From assembly GCA_951406725.2 (NCBI GenBank), contig OX597819.1:48298001-48362000 (forward strand): a stretch of DNA of 64,000 nucleotides, read 5' to 3'. Source of the stretch: Octopus vulgaris (Eukaryota). The translations under genes and the position numbers were made by a program. Below are positions 1,238 to 42,808 of the stretch, one piece after another. Under the pieces are notes generated by a model, which searched no databases, was not told the DNA's origin, and saw only the letters and a list, made by a program, of their open reading frames with translations. The number at the start of each line of letters is the position of its first letter. Positions within the stretch are counted from its first letter, which is position 1.

Positions 1238-4200
1238 TGTTTCACAAATGAAATTATTCATCACTGGATGAATTAGCTACTGAGTGGACTCAGCATACAA
1301 TTATTATTAAAATAAAAATCCCTCACTGTATGATTTTAGCACAAATGTGTGAGGATCTAACTGTAATTTTGTCATTTCCCCTTGGGATTAAACAGGGTCT
1401 ATAATGAAAAGTGTTCCAGCAATGTATATCTAGAATAACACTGTCTTATACATTCTTCCTTTTTGAAGATGGGTGTGATTTGAGAGAGAATTGGGAGCTA
1501 TTGCTGAGTAACCACACAGAAGTTCCATAGTATACACTGCAGTTCTCTATTATCTATGACGTCACCATAACACTAGAGATATTATTTTATCCTTGTTCTA
1601 TGAAAGCAAGAATCAGGATCCTTTTTTTTTTTTTAAGTAACTGATTTTATATTAAATATTCTTGCTATTGATCAGAGGGAATTGTAAAGAAAGGACTAGA
1701 GTATGGCTTTATGATATTTAATAAACTGAATTACTACACTCACGGAGTGGTTGGCGTTAGGAAGGGCATCCAGCTGTAGAAACACTGCCAGATCAGACTG
1801 GGCCTGGTGCAGCCTTCTGGCTTCCCAGACCCCAGTTGAACCGTCCAACCCATGTCAGCATGGAAAGCGGACGTTAAATGATGATGAATTCAACCCCTAT
1901 CATGGATGATGTTACCTTTCATATCCAGGGAAAAGAATTTTTTAAAATACTATAAGGCCTCTGTTTAACAGGATTGGCCATGTGTCTGGACCTGTATGTA
2001 TAGACTTAGACAAGATTTCTTTTGTGGAAGACTAGTAGCTGCTCATGTATACAACTTTACCCTCTCCATAGCACCAATGTTGTCTAATGACAAGGTTAAA
2101 GATTTATCACAGTCATTGCTGTCGGATCACAAAGAACCAGAAAGAACAAGGTACCTCTATCCCATCCTTGAACAGTTCTTACAATCCAAATCTCAAGATT
2201 GGGGGTTTTGTTTTTCTATTGACCCTGAAGGGGTGTCTACAAAGTTAACTTCAGGAGATTTTAACTCAATGCATACATAAGCAGTTGAAAATATTTATTT
2301 TAATAAATTTGCTAATTCATTACCTTAAAAGAAGTATTAGTATACTAAAATACAGAAGTGTTGGTAGATTAAGCTCAAGTCAAGTCACTTCTTACTAAAG
2401 CAAAAAAAAAAGTTTTAATGGAAATATGATCAAGAGAAGAACCAGTATTATATTGTAAGGTAGATAGTTTACCTTATTGGGGAAACAGCTATGAATTTAA
2501 ACCTATATCTAGTATCATAATGAACCGGACAATGACAAGTCCTATGACTCATTAGATAAGTGGGACATCAGTGAAGATTTCATCTCCATATGAAATATCA
2601 AAGGCATATCAGTCAGCCAGTGCTTAACTCTATAGACAGACAGGAAGAGATGAACTGCCAGCTAACCAATCAAGCATTACTTACGCACTTCTTTTGCTGC
2701 TTCCGCCAGCAAACTATATTTACTACATATATCTATTTACGGCTAGTTCAACTACAGCAATGCAAGAAAAGTGCTTTCACTAGCTACATATTTATTTTTA
2801 TTGCCCAGTCATCTGAAGAAGGAAAACAACCACAACTCTTTTCAGAACTTCCTAAACCCAGTGGCAGGAAGGGACCAAGTTATTCCAACTTGAGACCTGA
2901 CCTGAATGTTTACAACAGAGTTTGCCCTGATAAAGGTGTCCAAGAACCATGATTAAGTCTACCACCCAAAAACAGGAATGACCCCTTCAGTGAGCTTCTA
3001 CAAAGTTTACATCCACCAAAATTTCATTCACTCAAGGTTATGGTAGCGGACTTTTCCTCAAGATGCTGTACAGTGGAATTTAGTGAATACAATTGAGTTG
3101 TGAAGCAAACTTTTTTCTCAAAAAACTGTTCACAAATGATATGAACCACAAGCATTTCAGCTGGTTAAATAATACCCTATTCACTTGACCAGCAGCTGGC
3201 ACTCTAATCATTTTAATTCTATATTTCAAAAATAGAAACAGAATGCTAAATACCAACAGCAAATTGCACTTGATGTAGCTCATTATTTCATTAACATGCC
3301 AAAGAACACACCACTAACTTCAATTTAACATCAAAGATTGATGACTATGTTTCTTTTATCCCTCTTTTGTGAATCAATACATAATGATTTCTTAAATTGG
3401 CACACATTTTGTAGGGTAAAAATATATTGGAATGCATCAATCTCCTAGTATAAGTATTGGCATTTATTTCATTGATACTGGAAGGATGAAAAGTAAAAGT
3501 GATTTGATAGGATTTTAACTCAGAACATGACCAAATGTAACTAAATATGTATTAGCTGTTAAGATCTTAAGTATGATAAACACTAATTTGTGATGGAATA
3601 AAGCAATAGGCTCAGTGACATTAATGGGTTTGTTCTTTCTTTGAAATTAGTGTTTATAATACCTATTATAACTAAACACTAGTATGTAATTTAGTCTGAG
3701 ACTTTTAACATTATTGTCACTCCAATCACCTCTGAATTATTAAAGAATTCTTACACAGGCATATTAAAGAGATTTTACATGAAAAAGATATAGTTGATGT
3801 AATTTATGATTACAAAATAACAGTGAATTGTTTTATCAAACACAATACCAAGAAAAACTGAGTCAGACTGACGAATTGGAGCTCAGCACTATTCATATCC
3901 ACTGCTCTTATAGCTCTGTGTCAGCTATGAATTATTAGTCACTGTATATTCAAGAGCTCACTCACCGATTTGGGTAATTTTTAGAGGATGACCTTTTTCT
4001 TAGTACAGCTATATTTAAACATTCATAATATATAATACCCAAGTATGTAATATATACTTTTATATGTATATGTTTATACATCTAAAAGATCCTGATTCTT
4101 GCTTTTGTAGAACAAGGATCAAATAATATTATTATTATCTCTAGTGTTATGAGGTAATATCTAGACAACAAAAACCTGTAGTGTATACTATAGAAATTAT

Positions 4201-26831: not shown

Positions 26832-27624
26832 GGAACTTTTCCCTTTGAACGGCAGATCGAGAAATTAATTTTTTGAAACTAAATGCTTTCAAACTTCAGA
26901 TACTGGTAGAATGTGTCATATAAAACATCTTTTACTCTTAGCGTTTTTGAGAAAAGTTTATATTTACAAAATTATTTTGTGTTAAAGTTGTCATATTTCG
27001 GTAATTTCAGCCAATCAATCACATGTATTCAACTGAATAAAATTACTGCCATTGTTTGTCAACAACTATCGGTGATGTATATTTCGTTTGTCACTGTTAT
27101 TTATGACATCGTTTGTGCGTTTGTACTGGTTTTAGAGTTAGGGTTAGAGTTATGGAATAAAATGAAAAATGAAGAAATTGGAGGGGTAGGGGTTTGGGAA
27201 GCAAAAAAGTATTTCCGAAAATAGTAGCTGCAAAACAAGAAGAAACTAAAAGCAGTAGAAATGCTCGAACAACTATGGTGGTGCCATGAAGTAAACATGC
27301 TTCAGGTACACTCATTTATTCATACAAAAGTAAATGAGATGAAATATGTCATGAATAACAGTGACAAACGAAATATACACTGCTGGAAGTTGTTGACAAA
27401 CAACAGCAGTAATTTTATTCAGCTGAATACAGGTCATTGATTGGTTGAAATTACTGAAATACGACAACTTTAACACAAAATAACTTCATAAATATAAACT
27501 TTTCCCAAAAACGCTAAGAGCAAAAGATGTTTTATATGACACTGTCTACCAGTATACCCAAGTTTGAAAGTGTTTAGCTACAAAAAATTATTTTCTAAAT
27601 CTGCCGGTCAAAAGGTAAATATCC
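26832..27624. mobile_element. Second Merlin-like palindromic MITE, related family
   Basis: TIR GGAACTTTTCCCTTTGAACGGCAG / CTGCCGGTCAAAAGGTAAATATCC; exact 8-bp TSD GGCATGTC (26824-26831, 27625-27632); long inverted arms. Confidence 0.88.
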
Positions 27625-27636
27625 GGCATGTCATCT

Positions 27637-30600
27637 ATAATAATAATAATGAAATTATTGTATACAGTGCTCAGGTGCACCACAACTTGTCAGAAAGTGC
27701 ATATAAAGTACATGCAGTAATGTAGAAATGTCTGGAAAGTGAACATGCTTGTGTGTGTATGGAGGGGAGAAAATCAAGTATAGTGTTGGCGAATCTCAGG
27801 AAGCATGGAAATCTTGAAGGATGCAGTGCTCCGACAACTAACAACCGACGCCGGCAGTTTGTTCCACGCTTCAGCAACTCTCAGCGTGAAAAAATGTTTC
27901 CTGAAGTCATGGGAGCTGTGCTGTTTTCTTACTTTGTAAATATGTCCACGGGTGTTAGATGGGTGGAGTTTGAAGAGGTGCTCAGTGTTATTGTTTGTGC
28001 GATGGTTGATAATTTTATGGGTGTCTGCCAGGTCAGCTGCCAGACGTCGGAGTTTCAATGTGTCCATGCCCAGGGAAGTAAGGCGTTCAGGATATGGCAA
28101 ATGCCTGATGGAGGGTATTCTTTTGGTTGCACGTCGCTGAACAGCTTCCAGACGATTGATGTCCTGGGCAAGATAGGGGTTCCAGACTGGTGATGCAAAT
28201 TCCAGGTGAGGTCTTACCATAGCTATATAAAGCCGCAGATAGATAGCCGGAGAGCGGCTCACAAAGGATTTGGTGAGTGATGCCAAGACACCCTCAGCCC
28301 TCTTAACAATTTTGGCGATGTGTTTTGTCCAACGCAAATCACTGTCGACAATAACACCCAGATCACGTTCACTTGAAGACTTTTTGAGACGTGTTGTGGA
28401 GGGAGTAGGTGGACGCTGGGTTTCTCCTCCCAAAATGCATGGTGGTACATTTGTCCACAGCCAGCTTGAGTTGCCAGTCCATGATCCACTGCTGCATTGT
28501 GTCCAGGTCTGCTTGCAATAGAGATCCATAGTGTATAGGATTTGACCTCTTTATTTCGAGGTACAGCTTGATGTCATCTGCATATTTCAGCACTGTGACA
28601 TTCTTTAAGTTGGCATCTATGTCATTAACATATGCAACAAATAAAAGGGGGCCAAGAACAGATCCCTGCGGCACACCAGATGTCATCTCATAGGGCGAAG
28701 AGTGCTGTCCTAGAACTGTGACAACCTCTTTTCGGCCGAAAATAAAGGACTTTAACCAGTCATAGAGTTCGTCTCTTACACCCAACGCAGAAAGCTTCAC
28801 CATAAGTCTTTTGTGTGGCACAGAGTTAAAAGCCTTAGCAAAGTCCAGGTAAACAACATCCACCCAAGATCCGCGATCAGTGATTTGGGTAACATCCTCA
28901 AGAAACTCGATGAGTTGATTACAGCAGCTGGAGTTAGGAATAAATCCGAATAGTGACGGCTGGATGAGGCTGTGAGACTTCCAGAAGGTTTCTCTGATAC
29001 AGGATTCCATCAGTTTGGCGATGCAGCTGGTAAGACTGACGGGCGATAGTTGACAGGCGATGTGCGGTCGCCTTTTTTGAACAGAGGGATGACACTGGCA
29101 GTTTTCCACTGTTCTGGAGTAACACCATTGTCAAGACAGAATTGGAAGAATAGAGAAAGTTGGCTTAGAAGAAAGTACCCACCGTGTTTGAGAAGTAGGT
29201 ATGTAACACCATCGAGACCAGGAGAGGCATAATTGCGTTTATTCTTTAGGTGGCGTTGCAGCATTGCTGGTGTAAATTGCATAGAAGATATAGAGTCCGA
29301 TGTCAGTGGTGATGATGATGGAACATTTTGGTCTTCGACAGTAAAGATACCGGCATAGCATCCAGCAATGATTTCTGCACATTCTTCGGGATTGCCAGTA
29401 ATCTGTCCTGTGTGGGGATTGCGAAGGGGACCAACAGGAGAGTGGGGTCTCTGCTTTGAGTGCACATGCTTCCAGAACCCTTTGCTGTCAGGGTTAGCTG
29501 CAATGCGTTGTTCGAATTCAAGCACTGCCTTTTTTGTCACCTGCTTGAGGTGGTTGGCTGACCTATTGCGCTTTTTCCTGTTGCTCTCTGATTTGTGCAA
29601 TTTGTATTCCCATTCAGCATTACGGCGTTCTTTCCTGGCAAGTCGGACTGCTGCAGTCTCCCAAATTGCACTATTGGGTGGTTTTTTGTGCTTGTGTGGT
29701 ACTGATGCTGCACATATTGAATTCAGAATGTTCTGGAGTATAGTGTCCACATCTCCAGAGGTATAAAATTCGCGCCAGTTCGGGCGTTGCAGCTCAGTAC
29801 AATAAGAGCTCCAGTTTGCTTTATTCCAGTCAAAGCGGGCAATCTGAAGATGGTTGTGTTTTTTGTTACAACCAATCAGAGACAAGTCGGCCATGATCAG
29901 AGTCACCCAAAGGTTCTTCGGTAGTGACACTAATGATTGTTTCAGGAGAAGCGGTAAGTAGCAGATCCAAAGTGTTGTTACCCCTTGTGGGGGAGGTAAC
30001 AACTTGGGACCAATTCGAATTCAGCACCAGTTCAAGGAAATCGTCTGCACTTTGCGGCCAACGGAAGGCCTCCCAGTCAATCTCAGGGAAATTGAAGTCC
30101 CCCGCAACATACACGTGGCTGTTTTCATGGCAGCCGCCCTGAGGATATCAAAAAGCTGTGCGTCTTGCCGATAATTTGGAGGACAGTAAACGACTCCGAG
30201 CAGAAGTGTTGACATGGTCATGTGTACATTGCAGAAAAATACCTCCTACTGAGATTGGTTCAAATCATCACAGGGGATTGCCGATAGACTTGATCAAACA
30301 TAAATCATCACACCCCCTCCATGGCGATTAATGCGGTCTTTGCGGAACAGGTTGTAGCCGGCTATGCTGAAAACTCCATCACAGAGTGCGCCCACGTTTC
30401 CGTGACTGTGATGAAATCTGGGTTGATACTTTTGACGTAGGAGACAAAAAGATGCACCTTGTTACATAAACTACGGGCATTCAAGGACAGCAGTTTATAT
30501 CTGGATTTCAGATGATGATATACAGGGGATGGCTGATTGTTCTTGGTTAGTTTCCCAAGATTTTTGCATTGCCAGTTGTTGTGGGTGTAGTCTGCTCAGT

Positions 30601-30987
30601 CCAACTGGCATCCCTTATCCACGACTCACCAGACTTGACGAATTTCCAGATCTGCCCATCATCGCAGAGGCTAAACTCTCCCGTGGCACAGAGTTGCGAT
30701 TTAGGGAAGCCACGGATCTTATCTTTGGGTGTACATCGGGTGGTAGGCCAGGACGTGTTCTAAAGTTGATAATGTTGTCACGCCAAGCTCTGTCAGCAGC
30801 CAGATGGAATGTCCACGCCTCAGTAGAGCCCGTAAACAACAGCCTGGGTTTGGATCCCGGTCGGCCAAGTCGGGAAGCACTTTTTGGAGGGACACAGCTG
30901 AGATCCCTAGCTGTGTTTCCAATGAATGCCTGCAGATCTGCCGGCACTCCTTCAGTCAACCCATGAACTTTACAGCCCATCCTCATA
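27637..30987 (-). mobile_element. Decayed CR1-like LINE (APE endonuclease plus reverse transcriptase, frameshifted), 5'-truncated
   Basis: VAGDFN and TRGNNTLDL (endonuclease); YLDFAKAF, GVPQGSVLGPLL, KYADD (RT); TRGH..FFTLRV..WNKLP C-terminus; (ATT)n tail; ORF2 split over several frames. Confidence 0.95.
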
Positions 30988-32915: not shown

Positions 32916-32969
32916 CGCCTGCTTAGCCCGCATCAGCTTGAATCGGTCAAAATCTGTCATCATTGCTCG
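32916..32969 (-). CDS. RPL14: RPL14 coding exon 4 (RAMMTDFDRFKLMRAKQA)
   Basis: TTTGTAG| and |GTAAGA; TDFDRFK is the eL14 signature. Confidence 0.96.
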
Positions 32970-33080
32970 CTACAAAGAGAAAAAAAAAAGGACATGACCT
33001 TACACTTCACTTCTTCATATGAAAATTACCAGATTTCTAAATGACTTAATAACCATGTATCATATATAACTAATGATTAA

Positions 33081-33298
33081 CCCTTTCGTTACCAACCCAG
33101 CTGAAACCAGCTCTGGCTCTGTAGTACAAATGTCTTGTTACCTAAATTTAGAATTAAAATCTTCCACCAAAACCTTAGTCACAATTTATGTTCCTAACAC
33201 TAGCTTAATAACAACTAAGTTATTTTGCTAAATTCTTTCTTATATTTAAAATTGAAAGAAACACAGAGCATCTCAAAATATATACAGTAATGAAAGGG
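33081..33298. mobile_element. piggyBac-like MITE
   Basis: TTAA|CCCTTTCGTTAC ... GTAATGAAAGGG|TTAA. Confidence 0.85.
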
Positions 33299-33616
33299 TT
33301 AAAGAAAAATTAAAACACTGGCCAATTTGAAAGATAGAAGACTAAATGCATCCTAGCAAAAACTGTTTATAGAGAGAGGGATAAAAACCAATGTTACATC
33401 AACATGATTTTCAAAAAGCCTCATATCCAAATGCTGATTGACATCACTGAGGATCATTTCTGAAAAAATGCACAATTTCAAGACAGTATCTGTTTTGCGC
33501 CACCCTTATTTGTAGACACAAACCCCATATAAAGGAGCCGGAATTTCAAAACCTGTAATTTCAAGATTATCAGTATTTCACACTCCATTAAAGATATTTC
33601 AAATGAATATGACTTC

Positions 33617-33698
33617 ACTAATTAGATTACTCAGGTTTGAAGATCGTCATCACACTGGTTCAGACGGCACTTCCAAATTTCATCACGTTCTAATTAGT
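33617..33698 (-). ncRNA. SNORD49: Box C/D snoRNA, U49/SNORD49 family, copy B1 (all four boxes consensus)
   Basis: C GTGATGA 33686-33680; guide TGGAAGTGCCGT; D' CTGA 33663-33660; C' GTGATGA 33653-33647; D CTGA 33634-33631; 10-bp stem ACTAATTAGA/TCTAATTAGT; sense to host RPL14. Family from recalled human SNORD49A guide AGGAAGTGCCGTCAGA. Confidence 0.9.
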
Positions 33699-34482
33699 TT
33701 TAAATCATATTACAAAATATTTTTAACAGAATCACTTCCATTTCACTACATATGCCAGCAGTTCTCTGTAAACATTAGGTGCAAAATTACAGACGTTCAT
33801 GTGCTTCATATTTCATGTTCTAAAGTTTAACACTAAATTATTATAAGGAAAGCTTTGATAGTAATTATGAAGCAATGGAGATCAAGAAAGGATGGAATGT
33901 AATACTTATAGTGCAAGAGTATTGAAGTATTAATTAGAAATGAAGGAAATACAAACTGATACAAGGGAAGAACCAAGAACATTGTCCTTTCCAATGCTGA
34001 AAATGCCCAAATTAAAATTTGAAAATTTTTGAAAATTCAACTAGGAAGGGGAGAAAATTGTAAAAATGATAGTGTAGAAACTCTAGCAACATTATTTCAT
34101 TCATGAGGTAAGTGTACATACTGGCTTTTTAAATCTTTTTTTTTTTTTGTTAAACATACCATATAGACAAAAGTAATATATTTTTTAACAGAATAACAGG
34201 ATCCATACTTTCATTGACAATGCAAAGTTTTACCCAACAATAATGTGTACCAGATATTACTGAAGTATCATGTCTCAACCTAATATATTTCAATATCAAA
34301 GCTGAACAGATTGGTACCAGCTAAAGCCAAGAACTACAAGGAGGAAACAAATAAAAGTAACTTCATAATAAGTACACCACTTACAAATCTGTGCAATATT
34401 ACTTAGTTACATTTTCGTTGTCAACAACAGTAATCAAGTCAAAGCTATAAAAATAAAAACAAAATACCAAAATGCTAAGAGT

Positions 34483-34550
34483 ATAGACTCAGATTTGAAA
34501 GCGTCTTCCTGAGAATTCAGACGGCACTTCCATGTCTCATCATGTTCTAA
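34483..34550 (-). ncRNA. SNORD49: Box C/D snoRNA, U49 family, copy B2
   Basis: C ATGATGA 34543-34537, TGGAAGTGCCGT-CTGA, degenerate C' AGGAAGA, D CTGA 34492-34489. Confidence 0.82.
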
Positions 34551-35049
34551 TGAAATTTATTTATGCTACACACATAAATGCAGGGAGCATAATTAATATC
34601 AAATAACCATAAGCCTTTAAGAACTGACCAAATAGCTTTCAAGCAACTGTGAAGTCATGCAAGTAAATGCTAACTACCAATTACAGCACAGTGATTTCGT
34701 CTCATTTTACTTCATCTCTAATGTAATTCCTCATCCTCTACACTGTTCATATGCCTTGCTCATAATCTTTGCCACCCAGATATTTTCCTTCAAACCAAAC
34801 CTTCACTTTTGTACCCTTCATTCCCACCCATATTTAATCACCCTGCTCCTGATCTGCAATCTATATCTATTTGTTGAATTTGCTCTGGAATCCCGATCAC
34901 TACCACCTTACCTTTCCCCTGATATTTAGCTACCTATCAGAAAGAAAAAAACAAATTGATAATGGGCTTGACAAACAATTCTAAAATAGCTAGGTACCAC
35001 CCACCCCACTGGACATATACAGGTAGCAAAATTATTTTCTTTGTATACA

Positions 35050-35129
35050 CCAATTAGACACTCAGAGATGAAGATTTGTCTTCTTATGAATTCAGACGGC
35101 ACTTCCATTTCTCATCACGTTCTAATTGG
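35050..35129 (-). ncRNA. SNORD49: Box C/D snoRNA, U49 family, copy B3
   Basis: C GTGATGA 35118-35112, same guide and D', D CTGA 35065-35062, 9-bp stem CCAATTAGA/TCTAATTGG. Confidence 0.85.
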
Positions 35130-35539
35130 GTTTGTGTGTAATTGATGTAGGCGTGGTTAAATGTCCACAGATTGTTTTGTAACCATGTAGCTGTCTTCCA
35201 ATCCTTTCTAAATATCTTGAAGCTAATACAGGGTTGGGATTATATGTTGATAAACCAAAAATATATGCCCGACACTAGATTTAAATCGCTGCAGAAGGGA
35301 GAAAACTCTAGACTCACTAGTTAATTTAATGAAAGTACATTTGTTAACACTGCAAAATTTTAACTAATTTCTAAAAAAATTGGTTTAAATTACTGTGAAA
35401 TTTAGTCAGTAAATGTAAAAATTACATATTAATTCGCTAAATGACATGAAATACCCACCAAATTATACCTTTCTGACGGTAATTTGTGCCAATTATTATA
35501 CCTTTAAAATTACTTATCAGATATTTCTAGTCTTCAATG

Positions 35540-35627
35540 TCAAAATTAATGATATCAGTAAAAAAAATTGTCTTCCTTATCAATCAGACCACTTCCGTAT
35601 TTTTAACATCATGTTCAATAACTTTGA
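35540..35627 (-). ncRNA. Box C/D snoRNA, U49-related variant, copy A1
   Basis: C ATGATGT 35612-35606, ATACGGAAGTGGT-CTGA, AGGAAGA C', D CTGA 35558-35555, flanking inverted repeat. Confidence 0.72.
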
Positions 35628-36142
35628 AACATTGAAGACACTTTTAAATTACAAGAAATCATAGTTAAGCCATATAACAATGTAAACAAAATTATTTGTA
35701 GGTTTTTACCATAATAACATTCTATGCTAATCAATACATATTATAGCAATGAGAGTGCTATTGCCTTTTTCATTCATTAATTATTGTATGACCATCAGCA
35801 ACTTGCAAGCGCCGGATTGTCAGAAATTTTACCCAACAACCATAATACATAGGCTTTACAATGTGTAGCAGATATTACTGGAGCATCATGTCTCAACTAA
35901 TCTAACATTTCAATATCAAAGCTGAACAGAATGGTACCAACTAAAGTCAGGAACTACACCAAGGAGGAGACCAATAAAACCATCTTCATAATGAGTACCT
36001 CAAACATCCACAAATCTGTGCAATATTATTTATATTTTTGTTGTTATAGCAATAAAAATTAACATTTTTATTTTTTTTAAAACCCACCAAAACACTAAAA
36101 GTAGTTTTTATTTAATCCTCTTCAAGCTATTAACCAAAGATG

Positions 36143-36220
36143 CCCTTATAGACTCAGATTTGAAAGCATCTTCCTGAGGGTTCAGACGGCACTTCCATTT
36201 CTCATCATGTTCTAATTGGG
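36143..36220 (-). ncRNA. SNORD49: Box C/D snoRNA, U49 family, copy B4
   Basis: C ATGATGA 36208-36202, guide plus D', D CTGA 36157-36154. Confidence 0.82.
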
Positions 36221-36725
36221 TTTGTGTTTGTGTATAATTAATTGATGCATGTGTAGCTAACAGATTATGTTTCATAACCATGTAGTTCTGTCTCCTATTC
36301 CATTCTTTTCTAAATATCTGGAAACTAACACAGGGTGGGAGTTATAGGCCAAAAAGGGAATTTCAACGCCTAACACTAGATTTACTGATTACTTGTGTAA
36401 AAATCTGTTGTTTTAATGATAACTATCTTTGTTAACACTTTGCAAAATTGTAACCAAAATTAGTTTAAATTACTGTGAAATTTAGTCAGTAAATGTACAA
36501 GTTACATATTAATTCGCTAAATGGCATAAAACACATCAAATTATACGTTTCTGATGGTGATTATTAGACTAAGAATGTTTCAAATTGACACTTATGTTTC
36601 ATGAAAAAATTTCTTCCTTGCAGATATATCTTTATACAAAATCTTTTTCATTGACATTTCTCCCATTGTTTGTGCCAATTATTATACCCTTAAAATTACT
36701 TATCAGATATTTCTAGTCTTCAGTA

Positions 36726-36813
36726 TCAAAATTAATGATATCAGTAAAAAAAATTGTCTTCCTTATCAATCAGACCACTTCCGTATTTTTAACATCATGT
36801 TCAATAACTTTGA
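36726..36813 (-). ncRNA. Box C/D snoRNA, U49-related variant, copy A2
   Basis: C 36798-36792, D 36744-36741; core as in A1. Confidence 0.72.
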
Positions 36814-37325
36814 AACTTTGAAGACACTTTTAAATTACAAGAAATCAGTTAAGCCATATAACAATATAAACAAAATTATTTGTAGGTTTTTACCATAATA
36901 ACATTCTATGCTAATCAATACATATTATAGCAATGAGAGTGCTATTGCCTTTTTCATTCATTAATTATTGTATGACCATCAGCAACTTTCATGCGCCAGA
37001 TTGTCAGAAATTTTACCCAACAACCATAATACATAGGCTTTACAATGTGTAGCAGATATTACTGGAGCATCATGTCTCAACCAATCTAACATTTCAATAT
37101 CAAAGCTGAACAGAATGGTACCAACTAAAGTCAGGAACTACACCAAGGAGGAGACCAATAAAACCATCTTCATAATGAGTACCTCAAACATCCACAAATC
37201 TGTGCAATATTATTTATATTTTTTTGTTATAGCAATAAAAATTAACATTTTTATTTTTTTTAAAACCCACCAAAACACTAAAAGTAGTTTTTATTTAATC
37301 CTCTTCAAGCTATTAACCAAAGATG

Positions 37326-37403
37326 CCCTTATAGACTCAGATTTGAAAGCATCTTCCTGAGGGTTCAGACGGCACTTCCATTTCTCATCATGTTCTAATT
37401 GGG
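37326..37403 (-). ncRNA. SNORD49: Box C/D snoRNA, U49 family, copy B5
   Basis: C 37391-37385, D 37340-37337; core as in B4. Confidence 0.82.
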
Positions 37404-37946
37404 TTTATGTATAATTAATTGCTGCATGTGTAGCTAACAGATTATGTTTCATAACCATGTAGTTCTGTCTCCTATTCCATTCTTTTCTAAATATCTGGAA
37501 ACTAACACAGGGTGGAAGTTATAGACCAAAAATGGAATTTCAACGCCTAACACTAGATTTACTGATTACTTGTGTAAAAATCTGTTATTTTAATGATAAC
37601 TACCTTTGTTAACACTTTGCAAAATTGTAACCAAAATTAGTTTAAATTACTGTGAAATTTAGTCAGTAAATGTACAAGTTACAAATCAATTCGCTAAATG
37701 GCATAAAACACCCACCAAATTATACGTTTCTGATGGTGATTATTAGACTAAGAATGTTTCAAATTGACACTTATGTCTCATGAAAAAATTTCTTCCTTGT
37801 AGATATACCCACTACTTATCTTTAAAATATTTTTTATAATCATCAATACCTAAGATGCAAAATCTTTTACATTGACATTTCTCCCATTGTTTGTGCCAAT
37901 TATTATACCCTTAAAATTACTTATCAGATATTTCTAGTCTTCAGTA

Positions 37947-38034
37947 TCAAAATTAATGATATCAGTAAAAAAAATTGTCTTCCTTATCAATCAGACCACT
38001 TCCGTATTTTTAACATCATGTTCAATAACTTTGA
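37947..38034 (-). ncRNA. Box C/D snoRNA, U49-related variant, copy A3
   Basis: C 38019-38013, D 37965-37962; core as in A1. Confidence 0.72.
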
Positions 38035-38538
38035 AGACACTTTTAAATTACAAGAAATCATAGTTAAGCCATATAACAATGTAAACAAAATTATTTGTAG
38101 GTTTTTACCATAACATTCTATGCTAATCCATACATATTATAGCAATGAGAGTGCTATTGTCTTTTTCATTCATTAATTATTGTATGACCATCAGCAACTT
38201 GCATGCACCGGACTGTCAGAAATTTTACCCAACAACAATAATACATAGGCTTTACAATGTGTAGCAGATATTACAGGAGCATCATGTCTCAACTAATCTA
38301 ACATTTCAATATCAAAGCTGAACAGAATGGCACCAACTAAAGTCAGGAACTACACCAAGGAGGAGACCAATAAAACCATCTTTATAATGAGTACCTCAAA
38401 CATCCACAAATCTGTGCAATATTATTTATATTTTTTTTGTTATAGCAATAAAAATTAACATTTTTATTTTTTTAAAAACCCACCAAAACACTAAAATTAG
38501 TTTTCATTTAATCCTCTTCAAGCTATTAACCAAAGATG

Positions 38539-38616
38539 CCCTTATAGACTCAGATTTGAAAGCATCTTCCTGAGGGTTCAGACGGCACTTCCATTTCTCA
38601 TCATGTTCTAATTGGG
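38539..38616 (-). ncRNA. SNORD49: Box C/D snoRNA, U49 family, copy B6
   Basis: C 38604-38598, D 38553-38550; core as in B4. Confidence 0.82.
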
Positions 38617-39158
38617 TTTATGTATAATTAATTGCTGCATGTGTAGCTAACAGATTATGTTTCATAACCATGTAGTTTTGTCTCCTATTCCATTCTTTTC
38701 TAAATATCTGGAAACTAACACAGGGTGGGAGTTATAGGCCAAAAATGGAATTTCAACGCCTAACACTAGATTTACTGATTACTTGTGTAAAAATCTGTTG
38801 TTTTAATGATACCTACTTTTGTTAACACTTTGCAAAATTGTAACCAAAATTAGTTTAAATTACTGTGAAATTTAGTCAGTAAATGTACAAGTTACATATT
38901 AATTCGCTAAATGGCATAAAAACCCACCAAATTATACGTTTCTGATGGTGATTATTAGACTAAGAATGTTTCAAATTGACACTTATGTTTCATGAAAAAA
39001 TTTCTTCCTTGCAGATATACCCACTACTTATCTTTAAAATATTTTTTATAATCATCAATACCTAAGATGCAAAATCTTTTTCATTAACATTTCTCCCATT
39101 GTTTGTGCCAATTATTATACCCTTAAAATTACTTATCAGATATTTCTAGTCTTCAGTG

Positions 39159-39247
39159 TCAAAATTAATGATATCAGTAAAAAAAATTGTCTTCCTTATC
39201 AATCAGACCACTTCCGTATTTTTAACATCATGTTCAATAATTTTGAA
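39159..39247 (-). ncRNA. Box C/D snoRNA, U49-related variant, copy A4
   Basis: C 39231-39225, D 39177-39174; core as in A1. Confidence 0.72.
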
Positions 39248-39506
39248 ACAATGAAGACTTAGATTACAGGAAATTATATTTAAGCCAAATAACAATGTAA
39301 ACAAAAATATTTGTAGGTTTTTACTATAATAAAATGTTAAAATAATCCATACATATTAAAGCAATGCGGCTCCTATTGTCTTTCTCTGTCTTCAATTGTT
39401 GAATGCATTTGAATTGTTGTATTAACAACTTAGAAAAATACTGACTTCATTACACACGTGCATTCAGTTTTTGATACTTATTTCCCTATTTATACACGAG
39501 TTTCTA

Positions 39507-40004
39507 CAGTAATGCCTCTATATAAGAGTTACTTTATTCCCAGAGACCATTCATAAAGCAGAGAAATAATTTCCCAGAGTAGCAAAGTTATAAATCGTCG
39601 TTTGTTTCCAAAACAAAATATTTTACCTATAAAATTTATAATACTCATAAATAAATTGCAATAAAACAGTAGAATGTAAAGAATATTCTATGTAAAGGGA
39701 ATAACAAGATCATTCATAAAAAAAAAAAATATATTATAATTATTTTCTGAATAACTTCCAGTCGCATTTAACGCGCACACATGATTGCTGATTCACAAAC
39801 ACTCGTAGATGGACTTGTGGATTTCTTTTTAAAAAATAAGTCTACAGTTGTTTGCTGAGACTTATTTCACTATAAATTTCTCAGTAACACACACAGAAGG
39901 ATTTGTTATGATAGTAGAAACTGTTGCACTTCATTCGAAATTTGAATCTTGTGCTTGAAAAGTAGAACTCGTAAATCAAGTCCTTGTAAAGTGAAGCATT
40001 TTTG
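39507..40004. mobile_element. Old Tigger/pogo-like MITE (degenerate)
   Basis: TA|CAGTAATGCCTC ... GAAGCATTTTTG|TA, imperfect TIRs. Confidence 0.45.
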
Positions 40005-40727
40005 TATTGCTAATTACAAAGCATAAGACTAGATTTCAGAGGCAACACTATATTCATATGGTTGGCACTATCATCTAAACCCAGTCATCATGCATGCAAA
40101 ACATAGATATCTTATAACCCAATTTGGATAAACCTCACCACTTTCATCACATCTAAGTATTTTCTAGACTTTCCTCAGCATGCACCACTAATCTGCATGT
40201 CTATACTACTTTAGCTATTTCATTCCATATCAATCAGCTTGACTAGTTTTCAGAAATTATCATAGCATGTTCCATCTAAACACATTAAATCCACATCTTA
40301 TTGCAAACCATTTGATGCCTTTGCCTCACTGAAATAAACACTGAAGCATTTACTAGATTCAATTTAATCAGATGTCGTATATATACAATCACCATTGCTA
40401 TATAGTTTTGGGAATGGAGGTTTATAACTGGAAATAAAATGACTATAAACACTTTGATCCTCTACTTGTACAGAATTACCTACTTTTATTACACACAGAA
40501 AAACAAAGCATCATTTCAACATTTTGAAGAAAATTTATAATGAACATACTTCCAGAAAGATTGAATTCTGTGGATTGATCTTTTTAACACCAACTCATTC
40601 ATTGGTCACTTCTGGTTCTATAATGCTAACCCACTAAAATCTAAAGGATTCCAGGAATGGAATACCAGAGAACACTTCTTGTTTATCTGTTCTGAATGCA
40701 ATGAATTCACAATATATAAAAACAAAC

Positions 40728-40922
40728 CTTTTGTCTTGCCATAATCTTTTGAGCCCATTTCGTCTGAGACCATTTACCAGTTATGTCAGCAGTATCCCAA
40801 GCTCTTTTCACTTCAATGGTTCTTGCAGAGTGTCTGATCTTGATGACAAATCTTGTCAGATGCACACTATTGAAATTGATAGCTTTTCTTAAGACACCAC
40901 TGCATGGTCCATCAATCAAAGC
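40728..40922 (-). CDS. RPL14: RPL14 coding exon 3 (ALIDGPCSGVLRKAINFNSVHLTRFVIKIRHSARTIEVKRAWDTADITGKWSQTKWAQKIMARQK)
   Basis: TAG|GCT...AAG|GTTTG, phase 0; within ORF 40707-40919. Confidence 0.97.
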
Positions 40923-42516
40923 CTATAATTATGAAAACATGGTTAGATAGAAAATTTAAAAAAAAGAAGTTTTCTTTTGACATTCTTTTACTAGCTTCAA
41001 TCCTTAGACTGCAGTCATACTGGGACACCACCTTCAACAGTTCTAGTCAATCATATCAACCCCAGTATTTATTGCAGTCTGGTATTTTATCAATCACTTT
41101 TTGTTAAGCCACTAAGTCAAAGGACATATAAAAAAACACAGGCACACACAAGTCTGATAGATTTTCTTTCTCCATCAAATCTCATTCACAATATATTTAA
41201 CCCAAGGATATAATGGAAGACAACTACCTAAGATGCCAAGCATATATTAGGATAGTACTTAAACTTGACAAATATTAAGGATATACACAAAATATTCAAA
41301 GGTCTGTGTTGTCTCTGTGAATACTCTATCAAAACATAATCTTGTTAACTGATAAAATATTAGACTGAATTGTAAGTAGGGTATCAATATGACCAAAACT
41401 CTTCAAATGGGTGTCTCAGCATCTCTGCAGCCAAATGACTGAAACCAGTAATATAATATGGCTTTTACTATCTGAGTGAAAAAGTAAAAAAAAAAAAAAA
41501 AAACATTGAAAAATCTAAATGAAAGTACATATGCTGCTACAATGTAACTTATGATAATTTTACTTATACAACAAAACTAGTTTGAGGAAGTCTTCATGGG
41601 GGAAAAGATTGCTAAATTTAGCTCCCCTCATTGCATTAGATGGAGGGGAGGTAGTCTCCCTTCAATGCAAGTACTCGATTGTTGCATCAATATGTGCAGA
41701 AAACTGTCTGTTCTTTGCTTTTTCGTGGCTAAATAATTGTGAAACTATTTTGATCTATTATTTTAGTTAGTAAACCAAAATATAATTACACAGGATTGTA
41801 ATGAAATTATCATAGATAGCTTTATTTGGACAAATAATATGAAATATAGTTATACATGTCGATATGTCTCGTGTGAAAAGTGCTGCGCTGCAGTTTCGTC
41901 TGCTGACAATTCACTGTCAACAAACCGTTCACTAGCTGTGCTTTGAAACACAAATGGAATGATAAATCCCTTGAAAAGCATGTTAGGGTTAGCGAGAGGA
42001 AGGACATCCAACTACAAAGCATATATAAAACAAACGTTCACGTAGTTACATGTTATTTCGTAAAAAAATATATAATAGTATTACTGCAATTTTCTAATTA
42101 TTTCGAAGATTATCTATGCAATCGATTGAAATGGAGCACTCTGTAAGCAAAGATACATCAATAAACATATGTAACACGGTTTTAATGTTTTTTCTCCGAA
42201 AGCAAAGATTATATGTGTAAAAATGCATTAGATATTATTAATATCTTGCATAAATTGTATTCCAGTTTACTAATTGAAAATAATAAATCAAACGCATTTT
42301 ACGTTTATCCTTTCACCTGTGTTTTACTCAGTTCACGGTTTCATATCTACAAAATGTCATGGTTTCTTAAATGAATATAAGAAACAAACCAGTATATATA
42401 AATTATTACTGTATAAAACACGCTACTGTGAAAACATTATCTTTTGAGTTTTAGCGCTAATATACCGATAAACTACATTAAACTATCAGATAATTTGCTA
42501 TATTTTGTAGCATTCA

Positions 42517-42609
42517 GTTTCAAAACTAATGATATCAGTAAAGAAAATTGTCTTCCTTATCAATCAGACCACTTCCGTATTTTAACATCATGTTCAATAA
42601 TTTTGAAAC
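42517..42609 (-). ncRNA. Box C/D snoRNA, U49-related variant, copy A5 (RPL14 intron 2)
   Basis: C ATGATGT 42591-42585, ATACGGAAGTGGT-CTGA, D CTGA 42538-42535; stem GTTTCAAAA/TTTTGAAAC; core near-identical to A1-A4 while flanks diverge. Confidence 0.78.
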
Positions 42610-42703
42610 TGCACGAAAACCAATTTTCAGACTACAAAAAGAACATTACAACATGGTATTTTACAAAACCTTGAGTGTTACTTCAGAAAAACTTTTAACT
42701 TAC

Positions 42704-42808
42704 TCTGTTTTGGTCAATAACGTCGATAATGACGCACAATTTCCCAGAATCTACACCTTTCACGATGTAGGCCACGCGACCCACCTCCACGAATTTCCGA
42801 TTGAACAC
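42704..42808 (-). CDS. RPL14: RPL14 coding exon 2 ([35 protein letters not shown])
   Basis: TATAG|GTG...AGA|GTAAGT; FVEVGRV and IDVIDQNR eL14 motifs. Confidence 0.97.

Follow-up and report, generated by a model that had tools for sequence, protein, structure and literature searches.

Introns 2 and 3 of the ribosomal protein gene RPL14 (eL14), in a 64,000-nucleotide (nt) stretch of Octopus vulgaris contig OX597819.1 (positions 48,298,001 to 48,362,000; the whole stretch is called the window hereafter), carry five copies of a small nucleolar RNA (snoRNA), termed type A, beside six copies of a U49-like one, type B. We consider it reasonably probable that type A is a U49-derived box C/D guide retargeted to the L1 stalk of 28S ribosomal RNA (rRNA), where C3743 is the nucleotide that it is predicted to methylate. 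The L1 stalk is the moving arm which handles the exiting transfer RNA (tRNA). Judged from its sequence, type A is a real, probably functional, lineage-specific guide, the function being a predicted one. The five copies had been noticed in an earlier reading of the same letters (the original prediction) and turned out to be what was claimed, i.e. box C/D elements of RPL14 introns 2 and 3 accompanied by six type B copies.

All five type A copies have terminal C and D boxes and internal D' and C' boxes. They follow the pattern ATGATGT-TAAAA(A)TACGGAAGTGGT-CTGA-TTGATA-AGGAAGA-CAATTTT(C/T)TTTA-CTGA and measure 57-58 nt from C to D; read as RNA, box C (AUGAUGU) is followed by a 17-18 nt spacer with UACGGAAGUGGU at its 3' end, then by D' (CUGA), 6 nt, C', 12 nt and D (CUGA). 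The C' box, AGGAAGA, is degenerate, with the GA and G retained. Relative to type B, type A lacks the CC before D', as had been seen originally, and in addition carries two letters (AC) 5' of GGAAG which the first description of the difference had left out. An assembly search with A5 returned five matches, which are the five RPL14 copies; at up to one mismatch there were ten, five of them exact and the remaining five without C/D context. In the Rfam scan, type A reached the gathering score of no family. A1 gave a weak SNORD49 match (12.4 bits, gathering score 37), and a weak match of type A to TtnuCD7, of the U65/snR77 family, had an E value of 9.7.

The D' guide was scanned against the genome's own 28S (four copies fetched), 18S, internal transcribed spacers, the small nuclear RNAs (snRNAs) U1, U2 and U6 (two copies each) and the host pre-mRNA. 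Against the 28S sequence GCCA[C]UUCCGUA it forms 11 Watson-Crick pairs (positions 2-12) and a G-U pair at position 1, at -20.7 kcal/mol. This is the best ungapped site in 28S plus flanks (L001) and 18S plus flanks (L005), scoring 12.9 with the next at 10.2, and the runner-up duplexes reach -15.4 kcal/mol in L001 and -14.0 kcal/mol in L005. The site was found once in each of the four 28S copies. An unbroken run of nine or more pairs with a stable RNA, Watson-Crick at position 5, was taken as the mark of a guide, and type A shows both. In plants, 100 of 104 mapped sites have at least nine consecutive pairs (PMC8053127); U49 is an exception to the nine-pair rule, with a U-U mismatch at position 6. 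Following the D+5 rule, which is given together with a 10-bp limit in PMC8053127, the predicted methylated base is the bracketed C, at about 28S position 3743. The U49 site (4183), which all four 28S copies retain intact, is 440 nt further downstream.

A new target containing CCACUUCCGUA had been only the fallback of the original prediction, and this sequence is indeed present in the species' own 28S, at the site just described. Its first choice fared worse. Under that view, the loss of two letters shifts the target from the U49 site to a C two bases further 3' (28S 4185), still in that helix and close to the peptidyl-transferase centre. In the best duplex with that region, CGGCU[C]UUCC is indeed opposite guide position 5, but this duplex has -8.2 kcal/mol, five consecutive pairs and mismatches at guide positions 2 and 4, as opposed to 11 consecutive pairs at the stalk, and it falls short of the nine pairs typical of the mapped plant sites. 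We therefore rejected this site as extremely improbable; the best target is found in the L1 stalk instead of beside the peptidyl-transferase centre. The snRNAs were also rejected as targets, the run of pairs over position 5 being at most 4-5 in U1, U2 and U6; in the host pre-mRNA it is 6. For the D-side spacer as a candidate second guide, no target is claimed, because the best pairing is short (7-8 pairs) and the sites differ between A5 and A4.

For the whole guide, 45 of 20000 shuffles gave at least 11 Watson-Crick pairs over position 5; for its last 13 nt, 29 of 20000 did. Nulls that edit the parent guide are fairer than shuffles: all 2-nt deletions combined with 2-nt insertions in the B3 guide produced 11 pairs with rRNA in 14 of 3600 cases, and all 2-nt deletions combined with 1-nt insertions in the Rfam consensus U49 guide did so in 1 of 1024, that one being the type A site. 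If the seven shared letters are left as they are, 2 of the 256 combinations of the remaining four succeed. Several points nevertheless weigh against the retargeting proposed here. Chance likeness of two rRNA sites supplies much of the match, so that the shuffle nulls overstate the surprise; the edit nulls were devised after the match was seen; even without edits, the B guides reach -13.3 to -16.0 kcal/mol at the stalk site; and the scan was confined to the rRNA unit, U1, U2, U6 and the host pre-mRNA. The B guides have a C-C mismatch at position 4 of the stalk duplex, and their energy there is near the -15.7 kcal/mol that they reach at the U49 site. Their position 5 would face 28S 3741 in the stalk, the equivalent of human 4055 (Arabidopsis Um2494), but with position 4 mismatched.

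Part of the same evidence speaks for a reading that we judge unlikely, namely that type A is what remains of a U49 duplicate in decay, its copies being homogenised by tandem duplication and gene conversion and its match to the stalk being accidental. The 7-nt core match is already present in the unedited B guides, CACTTCC occurs twice in the rRNA unit, and four of the five A copies form one recent array. Random edits of equal size, however, yield 11 pairs as rarely as stated above, and all four boxes and an external stem (see below) are kept while the flanks of A5 and A4 are near background. The cores of A5 and A4 are alike in 56 of 58 columns, the two differences (one A in the A-run and one D-side spacer base) both lying outside the pairing stretch. 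In the 90-nt flanks beyond the stem, 55 of 101 and 55 of 106 columns are alike; the flank background has a median of 0.48-0.49 and a 95th percentile of 0.53-0.56. These comparisons support a type A guide that changed under constraint, in agreement with the earlier remark that it does not look like random decay. Two considerations count against this. A1-A4 are one recent tandem expansion, and the independent observations of type A are therefore two (A5 and the array), not five; moreover, the likeness of A5 and A4 could also be due to gene conversion. Parts of A4 and A5 are covered by contigs of X4, X7 and X8, three closely related labels; the 40 differences that are listed all lie outside the A cores, but the relationship is too close for a test of conservation.

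Type A likely derives from a U49-type duplicate, an origin that the original prediction had already favoured and to which several features of the letters point. GAAC precedes box C in all eleven elements (five A, six B), and B3 is the copy with which type A aligns closely 3' of D'. In shuffles that left boxes and guide unchanged, 0 of 3000 and 0 of 2000 attained the A5-B3 score, all elements compared being from this one genome. We also considered descent from a U65/snR77 copy, the guides of the two families being similar, which would leave the predicted target unchanged. This genome has a U65-like gene, with which A5 scores 19 (20 of 2000 shuffles), equal to its score with B4-B6, and the weak TtnuCD7 match mentioned above agrees with such a descent. 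B3, however, scores 28, the GGAAGUG core belongs to U49, and the U65-like gene is found on a different contig, its 18S site is intact, and its guide, GGAAUUACCG, is absent from type A. We regard this origin as highly improbable. It must be said against descent from U49 that the likeness of A5 to the other B copies (4-22 of 2000 shuffles) is no stronger than that to the U65-like gene, and that the flanks alone are only weakly alike between A and B (p 0.01-0.19 at 5', 0.3-0.98 at 3').

The U65/snR77-like gene (contig C1, about 17.35 Mb) is present as two inverted copies 1.2 kb apart, one of them without the final D box. Arabidopsis 77Y and U49 genes are listed as neighbours; in this genome the U65-like gene is not beside U49. 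An outgroup scan of one metagenome gave a single match, inside an open reading frame, which we judged to be chance. The frame, of 184 amino acids, is unrelated; its contig is rich in genes and virus-like, with frames that look helicase/RING-like and methyltransferase-like by eye.

The position of the predicted site was established in human, yeast and Rfam-model numbering; E. coli 23S numbers were not used. The Rfam large-subunit rRNA alignment is ungapped at the site and places the predicted C at model position 2503, three columns 3' of C2500, on which position 5 of the SNORD75 consensus falls. SNORD75 guides human 28S C4032 (= Cm4054), and a primer in the same paper shows the human stretch to be gapless between the U75 site and the equivalent of the predicted one (PMC6856654); the predicted C thus corresponds to human 4057. 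Human 4054 is yeast 2492 in Table S4 of PMC11014333. Yeast 2496-2498 (human 4058-4060) are in the L1 stalk, near helix 76 (PMC5829565), and the predicted target is therefore a stalk base. In the species' own 28S, the predicted C pairs at the top of a long stalk helix. Of the 11 letters of the Rfam large-subunit consensus at this site, the guide fits 6, indicating that it is tuned to the 28S sequence of this lineage. The site adjoins the bases equivalent to yeast C2496-U2498, which a Upf1 probe cleaves (PMC5829565). The rRNAs are very long (18S 2643 nt, 28S 4890 nt), and an insertion of ~150 nt is found inside the stalk, directly 5' of the predicted target.

Table S4 of PMC11014333 covers fly, human (with mouse numbers), yeast, Arabidopsis, Xenopus and Dictyostelium, and its consecutive rows in this region are human 3959, 4042, 4054, 4055, two without a human position, and 4196. 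It has no row for methylation at the human 4057 position, and the predicted site is thus unreported as far as that six-species table goes. The Babesia and planarian literature, as far as it was accessible, likewise had nothing on this site.

Another reading takes type A as an old L1-stalk guide, a counterpart of vertebrate U75/SNORD75 which slipped three bases upon an rRNA change, its likeness to type B being due to convergence or conversion. Both guides end AGUGG-N before D', and incomplete searches for a separate guide to the U75-equivalent C (28S 3740) came back empty: a first pattern had 0 matches, of 95 matches to a looser one 30 were fetched, none with a D' box, and a genome search for SNORD75, in which 65 of ~1.5 million first-look candidates were scored, gave nothing over the cut-off among 17 matches (best 26.6 bits, without a C box), so that absence of a separate U75-type guide is not established. 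Such slippage seems distinctly unlikely to us, since none of the A copies matches SNORD75 (RF00612) even at an E value of 10, Table S4 of PMC11014333 gives the U75 site for no species but human/mouse and Xenopus, guide positions 7-12 would all need to change, and the degenerate C' region and the GAAC before box C are common to A and B.

Type A could also act without methylating C3743, as a folding chaperone on the stalk or on another RNA, or on mRNAs or tRNAs. In favour of a chaperone, the guide opens the strand which closes two stalk helices, and the D'-C' spacer with the C' box (42551-42563 in A5, same in A1-A4) is complementary to the 28S U49 region (-12.7 kcal/mol, one bulge), so that type A could bridge two rRNA regions. 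This second pairing is probably incidental because it uses the C' box, which in this family is normally covered by protein, and the stalk duplex is in the exact methylation register (positions 2-12, Watson-Crick at 5). We hold a function of this kind to be very unlikely.

If type A is a retargeted U49, as we propose, its history is likely to have run as follows. Lineage-specific substitutions in the stalk would have created CACUUCC, which already fits the U49 guide core GGAAGUG, and imperfect pairing of the U49 guide at this new site would have served as a stepping stone. One U49 duplicate would then have lost the CC, removing the mismatch at position 4 and moving the +5 register, and a gain of one or two letters (C or AC) would have lengthened the duplex, the B copies keeping the U49 site. 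In the cell, type A would be released from its intron, probably with the help of the external stem, assemble with Snu13, Nop56/Nop58 and fibrillarin as is known of the family, and pair with pre-rRNA before the stalk helix closes, whereupon the methyl group would be transferred to C3743. What the sequence itself shows is the order of the boxes, the complementarity and how rare it is under three nulls, the location of the site, the pattern of conservation and the likeness to B3; excision, assembly and methylation are inferred from the D+5 rule and the family's known pathway.

The arrangement of the host gene bears on the release step. All A and B copies are on the sense strand of RPL14, whose splice sites are visible in the sequence, and in a contig from run X9, presumably an RNA run, exon 2 is joined to exon 3 and the sequence continues from exon 3 into exon 4. 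Exon 3 appears to be spliced straight to exon 4, and release of the snoRNAs between them would thus need cuts internal to the intron or hidden splicing. In intron 2, the donor is 113 nt and the acceptor 1612 nt away from A5. External stems aid snoRNAs that are distant from the branch point, and since all copies are far from the 3' splice site, a stem probably assists release here. In A5, a 14-bp stem encloses the element (fold z -4.04; 1 of 200 shuffles equally good), and over the five A copies 60 of 70 cells are paired (85.7%), compared with 29-57% when the register is slid. The changes in the stem across A copies are five one-sided and zero two-sided, which we count against the proposed reading. 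Ten C/D snoRNA genes (four A, six B) are found within RPL14 intron 3, and a further C-to-D-box candidate in this intron (window 40036-40091, minus strand) is without convincing rRNA match. At window ~27600-30900 (minus strand), the sequence resembles a degraded LINE-type (long interspersed nuclear element) element, with endonuclease- and reverse-transcriptase-like stretches recognised by eye.

Table 1. Features of the RPL14 region, in window positions; in each snoRNA copy, box C starts at the higher coordinate
Feature	Positions	Strand	Remarks
Type A copy A5	42535..42591	-	box C to box D; sole snoRNA copy of RPL14 intron 2
A5 box C	42591-42585	-	
A5 D' guide	42584-42568	-	pairing stretch, guide positions 2-12, 42569-42579; position 5, 42572
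A5 box D'	42567-42564	-	
A5 box C'	42557-42551	-	
A5 box D	42538-42535	-	
A5 with 14-bp external stem	42515..42611	-	42611-42598 pairs with 42528-42515
Type A copy A4	39174..39231	-	intron 3; opens the tandem array
Type A copy A3	37962..38019	-	intron 3
Type A copy A2	36741..36798	-	intron 3
Type A copy A1	35555..35612	-	intron 3
Type B copy B6	38550..38604	-	Rfam SNORD49, 20.3 bits
Type B copy B5	37337..37391	-	SNORD49 match
Type B copy B4	36154..36208	-	SNORD49 match
Type B copy B3	35062..35118	-	SNORD49, 26.5 bits; nearest to type A 3' of box D'
Type B copy B2	34489..34543	-	SNORD49 match
Type B copy B1	33631..33686	-	SNORD49 match; canonical C'
Tandem repeat	35540..39405		unit about 1.18-1.22 kb; one A and one B per full unit
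RPL14 start codon	43931..43933	-	GT donor immediately after; from sequence
RPL14 (eL14) coding exon 2	42704..42808	-	weak Pfam KOW match; joined to exon 3 in X9 contig
RPL14 coding exon 3	40728..40922	-	Pfam Ribosomal_L14e, E 8e-17
RPL14 intron 3	32970-40727	-	7.76 kb; four A and six B copies
RPL14 coding exon 4	32916..32969	-	from sequence; X9 contig loose end at 40728 runs into exon 4

The six B copies are all six SNORD49 matches of the Rfam scan, each under the family's gathering score (18.8-26.5 bits, gathering score 37). The D' guide GGAAGUGCCG, which fits CGG[C]UCUUCC at -15.7 kcal/mol, is present in all six and not in type A. The type B pattern given originally is exact for B4-B6, but B1 has a canonical C' (GTGATGA), B3 has AAGAAGA, and the guides of B1 and B2 diverge at their 5' ends; the AGGAAGA form of C' is found in B2, B4-B6 and type A. 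In the assembly, the U49 guide word has 33 matches, 6 of them in the window; 10 of the other 27 were read and 0 had C/D context. The word followed by CAGA recurs in a dispersed repeat family, 7 of the 10 loci read having common flanks, again without C/D context. Within window 34489-38604, B4-B6 combine the 5' flank of B3 (ACACAAACCCAATTAGAAC) with the 3' half and flank of B2, as if they had originated by an unequal crossover between a B3-like and a B2-like copy at the time the 1.2-kb unit came about. A block of ~190 nt (window ~35855-36030 and ~34240-34400, and in other units too) is better kept than the adjoining spacer between old and recent units; it has no Rfam match and no stable fold. 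H/ACA snoRNAs were dropped as an explanation of other blocks of the unit, six folds having z values of -0.86 to +1.59 and Rfam support being absent.

More tentatively, and as a possibility in which we place less trust than in the retargeting itself, the whole locus may represent a new rRNA modification caught at birth: an accidental second site of U49, a duplicate sharpened by two indels, a hinge-side cytidine methylated in no mapped eukaryote, and parent and daughter amplified together in a ten-gene intron. If true, the arm which guides departing tRNA from the ribosome would bear a mark peculiar to this lineage. The origins of new rRNA methylation sites are mostly inferred from distant comparisons. 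Here, the parent guide, the daughter guide, the old site and the new site are all in one genome, together with a plausible stepping stone, and the path can therefore be dated and tested.

The most fitting description of type A is that of a guide probably derived from U49 and directed to a new, predicted target. It shares with SNORD49/U49 (RF00277) the box layout, the CUGA D', the GGAAGUG guide core and the company of true U49-type copies, and differs from it in lacking the CC, in its poor duplex at the U49 site (human Cm4456, plant Cm2880 and fly Cm3412 in Table S4 of PMC11014333) and in a target that lies upstream in the L1 stalk; it is thus outside SNORD49 both by score and by target. With SNORD75/U75 it shares a D' guide directed to the same L1-stalk strand and the AGUGG-N ending, but its nucleotide is three bases further 3', no family match is obtained and the host gene is another, so that it is excluded from SNORD75 by score and by nucleotide (position 5 on model C2503, not on C2500, the human 4054 equivalent). 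Arabidopsis 25S Um2494, guided by At4gCDbox117/118 (PMC8583080) and equivalent to human 4055 (Table S4 of PMC11014333), is likewise a lineage-restricted ribose methylation of this stalk strand; it lies two bases 5', and its guide is unrelated as far as checked (no Rfam match). Type A is predicted from its sequence to work like an ordinary single-guide box C/D snoRNA.

A literature search on cephalopod snoRNA guides found nothing on point by title or abstract, and the closest parallels come from elsewhere. Turnover of snoRNA targets is acknowledged in animals and plants (PMC5122169), and in chicken, new guides have arisen by cis-duplication in one host gene, with substitutions and indels in the antisense element (PMC2653536). 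The events proposed here are of the same kind, i.e. cis-duplication within a host gene and then substitutions and indels giving a new guide function. They differ in that parent and daughter are interleaved in one intron, in that the jump is to a distant helix and not to a neighbouring base, and in that a stepping stone can still be seen in the imperfect pairing of the parent guide with the new site. That duplicated guides may acquire other targets is known already; type A would be a clear, traceable and long-range case of it.

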